Shown here piece after piece: positions 16,569 to 17,798 of a stretch of DNA of 64,000 nucleotides (its first letter is position 1; every line of letters starts with the position of its first letter). The notes beneath the pieces were generated by a model, which saw only the letters and a list, made by a program, of their open reading frames with translations, made no database searches and was not told the DNA's origin. The stretch is from NCBI RefSeq assembly GCF_022045235.1, contig NW_027266298.1, forward strand, positions 1,550,001 to 1,614,000. The letters are read 5' to 3'. Made by a program: the position numbers and the translations under genes. The stretch is from Haliotis cracherodii (Eukaryota).

Positions 16569-17798
16569 TTATGGAGGATCAGGCACCTCCGCAACAGCCA
16601 CAGTAGACCTTGTGATTCGGGAACGAGGAGGAGTAATGGCCGAGCATGCAGCCTGACTGACGTCACCCACAAGATGAGACTTGAACTTCTTTGGTCCTCC
16701 ACCTCCCTCCGACCGTGACCTGGTCTTCCTCCTGACTGTCTGAAATTCATCATCATCATCAGCTGTGAAAGCAAGGGGTAAAGCAGCTAAAGCCTCATCA
16801 CCTTCCTGTGAAAACAGGTCGAGCACCTCACTCACAACGTTACCTTCATTCGTCTCCCCATCCACATGAACTTCTACGGTAGTTGTCTCCTCTGACACAG
16901 AAACCTGATCCTTTCTCCCGTCTGGAAATACTGTCGCGTCAGGATCCTCACCTTCCTGGACCTCCATCCGCTCACCACCACCCTCCACTTCCACTTCAAT
17001 TACTGAATCCACCGTACGTTCCTCCGAATGGCCCTCCCCCACCACACTACCTTCCTCAGAACTGACCGGATCACTGGTCTCCACGCCCTTCTGCACCCCA
17101 ACAGCAGATACCTGAGGAGTTTGAGGACGAACAACATCACTCTCACCTGTCTGTTGACTGGCTCTGGCAGGATCATCTCGAGCTTGTCCCTGTGGACACA
17201 TGTACCTTTGATGTCCAGATTCACCACATCTTAGGCAGATAGGAGGGCGGCCCGGAGCAGTAATCAACATGGCCATGCCATTACCAATCTTCACAATATG
17301 CGGGAGAAGATTTCTTTCATTTTCAGATAGCTCTATGGTAATAAGGCGAACACCACTGCACACCTTAGCCCCATCAGGGAGAACACAGGAATCATAAGTC
17401 ATATTAAGCACTTTACCATACCTGGAGAAATATTCACCAACATAACTCTCCCGCACAGTATGGTTCAACCAATGGACCCTCAGCGTGACGACCTGTCGCT
17501 GGTACATGGAGAAAAAGACACGGCCATTCTCATATGGTAACGATTGTGTCTGGAGCAATATGTCAGCTTTAGATTGATGATTAAAGGTTAGAAACCAGCA
17601 ACCATTTCTTTCAGCTTTCCAGAATGCCTCTAAGTCCGTACCCGAAAAACTCGGCAAAGCATTCTTAATAACGTTGAAAAGTTTATCACGGAGGAAGTTC
17701 CTTACCGAGGTCTCCGCCTTGACTGTAAGTCAGGCCTTGAAGTCATTCAGCTGCGTATGGGACAACGGACGCAGCTTGACGGCACTAGCCCATGCCAT
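16569..17798 (-). pseudogene. Family A ORF1 (nucleic-acid binding, CCHC) with premature TGA at 17730-17732
   Basis: MAWASAV start is in frame with ORF 16569..17657; motifs LRVHW, YFSRYGKV, ITAPGRPPICLRCGESGH; ends DPP*. Confidence 0.85.

Follow-up and report, generated by a model that had tools for sequence, protein, structure and literature searches.

Five families of LINEs inserted in a U2 snRNA array of the abalone Haliotis cracherodii end ORF1 with an acidic residue, two prolines and a TAA stop codon, and this [D/E]PP-stop is a real, selected and clade-limited motif. In the window (the whole stretch of DNA analysed, 64,000 nucleotides at positions 1,550,001 to 1,614,000 of contig NW_027266298.1, assembly GCF_022045235.1), the motif closes ORF1 in 7/7 two-ORF copies (families A-E) and in 0/2 ORF1-only elements (H1 and H2, which consist of ORF1 and a tail without ORF2). 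From the sequence, we tentatively propose that the motif would slow peptide release at the ORF1 stop and so brake the hand-over of ribosomes to ORF2, a reading to which we give slightly less than an even chance.

The ORF1 ends given in the initial annotation were all found as described, each on the minus strand, as are all features below unless stated. They are VPDPP in A (GAT CCT CCA TAA, 16569..16580), THEPP in B (GAA CCA CCC TAA, 25592..25603, behind a frameshift in the window copy), IDDPP in C (GAT CCC CCA TAA, 32527..32538, with a second copy at 39402-39413), VHDPP in D (GAC CCC CCC TAA, 46553..46564) and PEDPP in E (GAT CCC CCA TAA, 56696..56707, with a second copy at 63792-63803). H1 (19383..20855) and H2 (49347..50795) end in RVGE and ASKL, both with TGA. 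The composition of the ORF1 tails predicts [DE]PP at a rate of 0.0008 per position, and the 578 tail residues taken from A, C, D and E contain no internal case. Across the nine tabulated copies, the two prolines never change, D or E occupies position -3, and residues from -4 to -22 vary. The codons are GAT, GAC or GAA, then CCT, CCA or CCC, then CCA, CCC or CCT, with variation only at third positions (9/9 copies) and CCG at either proline in 0/9. This restriction to third positions indicates selection on the peptide. Compared with E, ORF1 is 61% identical in C, 42% in D, 42% in B and 29% in A, and the family E motif is unchanged (56660-56760) in contigs ~95% alike from three runs of three studies.

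U2 snRNA genes are arrayed in tandem across the window (nine Rfam matches, shared spacer 95-100% alike), and a minus-strand LINE splits most of them. These LINEs carry a zinc-knuckle ORF1, an ORF2 with endonuclease, RT and zf-RVT domains, and a poly(A) tail. ORF2 matches PF03372, PF00078 and PF13966 (i.e., an APE-type endonuclease with an RT), and the poly(A) tail runs into the 3' part of U2 at a fixed junction, GTATCTGTTC; the window holds eight U2 3' parts, and six junctions were matched by pattern (one tail with its U2 3' part lies at 19006..19182). With a U2 5' fragment at the head and the U2 array as location, these elements match Keno, a Tx1-type LINE, as it is described in the available parts of PMC4494074 and PMC4640811. 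This comparison drew on domains and U2 insertion, and our trees were built from ORF1 only. Those parts of the two sources say nothing on ORF1 ends and report Keno from vertebrates, lancelet and cnidarians, whereas the named ORF1 homologues of the window elements are all abalone proteins, and the window differs further in its many coexisting families and ORF1-only derivatives. The latter resemble the half-L1 element HAL1, as presented in the available text of PMC5753468, in having ORF1 and a poly(A) tail with ORF2 absent; unlike HAL1, H1 and H2 derive from Keno/Tx1 rather than mammalian L1, are site-specific in U2/U1 arrays and carry a new C-terminal domain.

Family E is intact, with an ORF1 of 402 aa (56696..57904) and an ORF2 of 1150 aa carrying endonuclease, RT and zf-RVT domains (52619..56071). 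Family A has a U2 snRNA 5' fragment at its head (17985..18024) and a zinc-knuckle ORF1 with one early in-frame stop (16569..17798), an intact copy of which lies at G000:C35:1504300 in the same genome. In the window this ORF1 is separated from its own ORF2 by two inserted elements, and the ORF2 at 999..4454 (endonuclease, RT, zf-RVT) is assigned to family A by inference. The family A spacer (about 4455-16430) is split by a plus-strand LTR retrotransposon (ORFs 11169-15670) that is BEL/Pao-like by its motifs, and an RNase H-bearing LINE (4586-9394) sits inside that retrotransposon; the same nest recurs at G000:C35:1526744. At 20856-21430, the poly(A) of element B is followed at once by H1 within one U2 gene, a tandem insertion of a type also found behind E at G000:C35:1615351.

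Beyond the window, a search with the E ORF1 gave 104 matches, and 60 stretches around the main clusters were examined. Further copies end in VHEPP-stop, VHDPP-stop and LPDPP-stop, a decayed copy has LEDPP with TGA, and other decayed or variant copies have DDPQ-stop, DPPYDKF-stop or DPP followed by a shifted frame. Several two-ORF families lack the motif: G (ETPPT-stop, two copies, in a U2 array), K (DPQWQ..., in two copies), C34 (DPPDDIL-stop, beside U4/U6 genes) and three families in U1 arrays (ESIIT-stop, TDSIT-stop and GSVTT-stop). Among the ends tabulated (13 two-ORF ends from this genome and one from the metagenome relative L092, with K and three variant copies left out), [DE]PP-stop occurs in 8/14 two-ORF ends versus 0/11 ORF1-only ends, and the stop is TAA in 12/14 versus 2/11. 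The initial claim that every two-ORF family carries the motif thus holds inside the window and fails beyond it. A single genome therefore offers a natural allelic series of DPP-stop, EPP-stop, PPT-stop, DPPDDIL-stop and ends without PP, with short and long spacers, and with and without ORF2. Relatives in U1 snRNA arrays or beside U4/U6 genes of this genome include L057, L058, L069 (G000:C32, C6) and L062 (G000:C34), and the U1-array ORF1-only elements nest inside the U2-array ORF1-only clade, which suggests a target switch. The available part of PMC4640811 gives only Keno, Utopia and Dada as snRNA-targeting elements.

ORF1 C-termini were also compared across other organisms. Word-index protein searches returned only one and three matches, all ORF1-only types by their C-terminal domain. 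A profile search, of which the best 150 of 1846 proteins were taken, led to 151 proteins examined, 124 of them with a knuckle and a tail of at least 60 residues. PP stands at the end of 4/124 of these relatives from the best 150 of 1846, versus about 0.8 expected (P = 0.008); all are predicted sequences whose ends may in some cases be incorrect. The clade of the window elements contains three of the four (GDPP; LNPP, P0011; HGPP, P0012) and also P0009, which ends KHK. Ends in PP thus exceed expectation, and 120/124 relatives without PP-stop speak against a Tx1 rule; the PP-stop characterizes a single clade and predates this genome. The GDPP protein comes from a metagenome contig (L091) headed by the U2 5' end, here preceded by a different flank, and its ORF1 closes with GAT CCC CCT TAA, and L092 is a U1-headed (read by eye) two-ORF relative that ends SEDT-TAG. 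A genome-wide pattern search gave 280 matches versus 207 in the control, i.e., noise.

How independent the contrast between two-ORF and ORF1-only elements is can be judged from the trees. In a tree of 21 ORF1 N-terminal domains, a weak branch (48/76) separates the ORF1-only elements from the rest, B-E form a clade (91/90), and A has no firm position. A quick tree with 51 database proteins added placed A-E, P0007, P0009, P0011 and P0012 in a starred 24-row clade, together with a sub-branch (88, unstarred) that holds all ORF1-only elements plus K, G and L072; support for B-E in this tree was 99 (starred). Since B-E are one clade, the five families are not independent. The simplest reading, made on trees in which the root was not inferred, would be one loss of PP-stop on the sub-branch that includes two-ORF families. 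The argument that the motif is present with ORF2 and absent without it is weakened accordingly, as the two-ORF families G (PPT-stop) and K (DPQW...) on the ORF1-only branch also lack PP-stop. Because the ORF1-only elements sit on one branch and have a different C-terminal domain, the 5-versus-2 contrast of the window is about one event, confounded by the domain swap.

The tails ahead of the motif had been described as poorly conserved and disordered, and the lack of conservation did not withstand alignment. Shared among families are a basic stretch, then [G/D]V..AA (around -29 to -32), and RSP or PP..RR; an Ala-rich stretch lies at -23 to -28, and the spacing of these elements is near-constant at 29-35 residues. 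In family A the partly conserved tail (16581..16670) reads DVSQAA...PPRSR, and its counterpart in B-E is GVA.AA...RSP..RR. The motif might accordingly act in the finished protein, with the C-terminal 35 residues ([G/D]V..AA, a basic RSP..RR linker and [DE]PP-COOH) serving as a binding or stability signal, e.g., for binding ORF2p or another ORF1p or for protection from exopeptidases, and with another domain swapped in where ORF2 is missing. Partial conservation of the whole tail, and not of PP alone, favors such a role, as does the presence of another conserved C-terminal domain in the ORF1-only proteins, whose elements lack an ORF2 in cis. This domain is about 110 aa long, is conserved in H1 (19383-19720), H2 (49347-49690) and L044, and gave no Pfam match; it also occurs in L037, L042, L046, L058 and L060, and at least eight families in this genome have it. 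However, tail and diproline do not travel together: P0007, P0011 and P0012 have PP without GV..AA, and P0009 has a similar stretch without PP. The FEM1B Psi-Pro/C-degron, according to the available part of PMC11053023, requires an aromatic residue or His about 20 residues upstream, and among A-F only C has one (His-22), with none in A, B, D, E and F. Where the stop has moved, moreover, prolines are often still nearby (PPT-stop in G, DPPDDIL-stop in C34, PPPDPT-stop in P0013), a pattern easier to reconcile with a motif that slows ribosomes than with a signal needing a free C-terminus. We regard a function in the finished protein as the main alternative to a termination brake, unlikely though far from negligible.

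Peptide-level conservation directly at a stop makes a programmed termination pause, as first suggested, the best reading of the motif; the part of that suggestion that leaned on ORF2 dependence is weak. Its two precedents were confirmed in the available texts. In the hCMV gp48/UL4 uORF2, Pro21/Pro22 and the stop are needed to silence release and repress the downstream ORF, as is an upstream helix through Ser7 (PMC4605324), and DPP, EPP, GPP and APP are eIF5A/EF-P pause motifs, with Pro ahead of a stop slowing termination (PMC5499558). A last-codon Pro in GCN4 cuts reinitiation by 24-55% according to the accessible part of PMC4793210. In hCMV and GCN4, the two cases for which a direction was measured, downstream translation is repressed, which makes a brake likelier than an activator. 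Like hCMV uORF2, the window ORF1s place Pro-Pro directly ahead of UAA and upstream of another ORF on one mRNA; uORF2, as portrayed in that text, is a 22-codon leader with a required tunnel helix, whereas the window motif ends a structural protein of 350-400 aa, and upstream residues of the tunnel-helix kind within about 16 of the stop were not found, since -4 to -22 vary among families. GCN4 uORF3/4 share a conserved last-codon Pro beside a reinitiation decision but differ in being short uORFs for which, in the same portion of PMC4793210, CCG is the strongest codon; the nine tabulated copies have no CCG at either proline. The 2A/StopGo motif of LINEs, DxExNPG/P, which is read through without a stop, is absent from the tails, which end at a true stop.

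In the mechanism that we propose, ribosomes would linger at the ORF1 stop while Pro-Pro occupies the P site, and the majority would be released there, leaving ORF1p far above ORF2p. A minority would be kept by the RNA element after the stop, reinitiate and reach ORF2, by a short scan in A-type elements (spacer about 150 nt) or via a spacer frame and an AUG/stop overlap in B-E. As residues before the motif vary and the protein is needed in bulk, a mild delay is likelier than an arrest. The absence of PP-stop from 6/14 two-ORF ends, from family K and from 120/124 relatives implies that ORF2 is expressible without it, and within this proposal the diproline is a tuning device of the clade, not required for the two-ORF design. 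If such a nascent-peptide brake does set LINE protein ratios, termination control would join the recoding tricks of LINEs.

A pause could instead serve the mRNA or RNP, by holding ORF1p near its own RNA (cis assembly) or by altering surveillance, with about 4.5 kb lying downstream. The same sequence evidence for a slow stop applies, and a long downstream region exists only in two-ORF elements. Yet ORF1-only elements with intact ORF1s would gain from cis loading and 0/11 of them end in PP, and the regions downstream are just as long in two-ORF families that lack PP, which leaves this an improbable account. Least probable of all, and very much so, is that the motif is a relic of one ancestor or follows from some RNA or DNA signal, with codons kept for a non-peptide reason: B-E are indeed one clade, but invariant first and second proline codon positions beside variable third positions and randomised neighbouring residues largely refute it. 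The motif has also persisted while ORF1 identity dropped to about 30%, and it turns up again in a contig whose U2 flank differs.

Downstream of the ORF1 stop, families A-G share a box at about +40 to +55 and a hairpin, CTCCC-N5/6-GGGAG, at about +80 to +110. In A these span 16472..16529 (box 16516-16529; hairpin TCTCCC-N5-GGGAG, 16472-16488) and in B they lie at 25536-25549 and 25482-25498; the hairpins of C, D and E are at 32415-32431, 46444-46460 and 56586-56602. In the first 130 nt after the stop, GGAC[AT] occurs 17 times versus 2.0 expected in two-ORF elements (14 ends) and 3 times versus 1.1 in ORF1-only elements (11 ends), and the hairpin pattern 10 times versus 0 expected in the former and 0 in the latter, counts that overstate significance because box and hairpin were defined on the same sequences and on related families. 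Pairing is kept in 90.9% of hairpin cells, and covariation is weak (one pair, with 25/500 shuffles as high). The GAC-rich box and hairpin nonetheless appear to separate two-ORF from ORF1-only elements better than the PP-stop does. The GGAC[AT] of the box matches the m6A consensus. GAYTAY repeats in the box (including L092:1270-1455) read DM..DY in some frame and occur in U2, U1 and metagenome families. Readthrough was considered and rejected, as the box is in the ORF1 frame in B and not in D, giving no shared extension. Nor is the arrangement of the TURBS type, in which the ORF1 stop overlaps or nearly abuts the ORF2 start and an exposed UGGGA sits a little upstream: the ORF1 stop of B-E is 512-770 nt from ORF2, and (T/A)GGGAG lies in the hairpin stem 400-660 nt before ORF2.

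The spacers of B-E (512-770 nt, about 48% T) contain an open frame that is always set one base before ORF2. In B (24861..25523, 220 codons) and C (32007..32540; second copy 38882-39415) its stop overlaps the ORF2 ATG, at 24868 and 32014, as ATGTATAG; in D (45760..46515) and E (56049..56690; second copy 63145-63786) it ends 20 nt beyond the ORF2 ATGs at 45782 and 56071. Stop-free spacer codons number 219/241 in B, 170/170 in C, 246/256 in D and 207/208 in E, and dinucleotide shuffles matched the stop-free run in any frame in 0, 13, 5 and 1 of 2000 cases, respectively. One U1-array family without PP shares the frame, and one T-rich 3'UTR examined as a control also has a 141-codon run. Across ORF2-start clusters, the spacer frame has a stop at +5 in 14/18 and the fewest upstream stops in 9/18, and the AUG/stop overlap may simply follow from Met-Tyr coding. 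The spacer peptides of B-E have no codon-position bias, barely align and gave no Pfam match. In the E sister copy, indels sum to zero, a +1/-1 pair creates one stop in the frame, and there are 11 synonymous and 17 non-synonymous changes; in other B copies and in F the frame is shifted in homopolymer runs. We thus rejected a third protein gene or conserved membrane protein in the spacer, for which purifying selection on the peptide would be expected and was not seen, and the frame is at most a bridge, not a gene. A +69 ATG as obligatory start was likewise discarded: it is lost in the contigs of all three runs and may belong to a branch-point-like CTAAT. Since A-type, G and K elements have short spacers without an open frame, PP-stop and long frame are not tied.

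These elements could be assembled into a three-step relay of diproline brake, capture and reinitiation at the GAC-rich box and hairpin, and a sacrificial U-rich bridge ORF that would carry ribosomes 450-700 nt past many AUGs and onto the ORF2 start via the AUG/stop overlap. We consider the complete relay quite doubtful; if true, it would explain ORF2 access without an IRES in LINEs with long T-rich spacers. How LINE ORF2p output is set against ORF1p is described as unsettled, above all with spacers of several hundred bases, in the available part of PMC5381506, and removal of spacer AUGs lowered retrotransposition according to that of PMC4072516. SART1 and L1 likewise have a bicistronic RNA with structure downstream of the ORF1 stop, which SART1 needs, as two reviews put it in their accessible sections (PMC5972666, PMC10275272), and fish L1 shares the long T-rich spacer (PMC5381506, same part). 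In these sources the SART1 ORFs overlap directly at UAAUG and those of human L1 are 63 nt apart, whereas B-E have 512-770 nt and their ORF2-AUG overlap belongs to an intervening frame; for fish L1 an IRES is predicted for long spacers, with no bridging frame in what is available of PMC5381506. Among the papers listed by our full-text searches, we found none that treats a Pro-Pro-stop at the end of a LINE ORF1 or a bridging frame in a Tx1 spacer. The proposal would bring a familiar type of mechanism into a new context.

Several minor features accompany these elements. Family A contains a p53-like palindrome, GGACATGTCC, which is absent from B-E and was set aside. The spacers of C, D and E contain CAG, exactly 16 nt and GTAAGT or GTATGT, a micro-exon-like arrangement (32132-32156, 39007-39031, 46045-46069, 56281-56305, 63377-63401). 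As a candidate, spacer splicing was dropped: contigs of five runs, none known to be RNA, had no joint with splice ends, which says nothing either way. The first bases of H2, GTCTTAGCCAAA (50960-50985), are complementary to U2 nt 15-26, and a chimeric transcript could thus form a new stem. The 5'UTRs of six window elements (17876-17885, 20916-20925, 26892-26901, 47754-47763, 50857-50866, 57955-57964) and of L091 (L091:100-120) contain a splice-acceptor-like (C/T)AG|GTCTACG, and seven array units have a donor-like ATG|GTATGT ~45 nt ahead of U2 +1. A spliced ORF1 mRNA made from the host promoter is possible.
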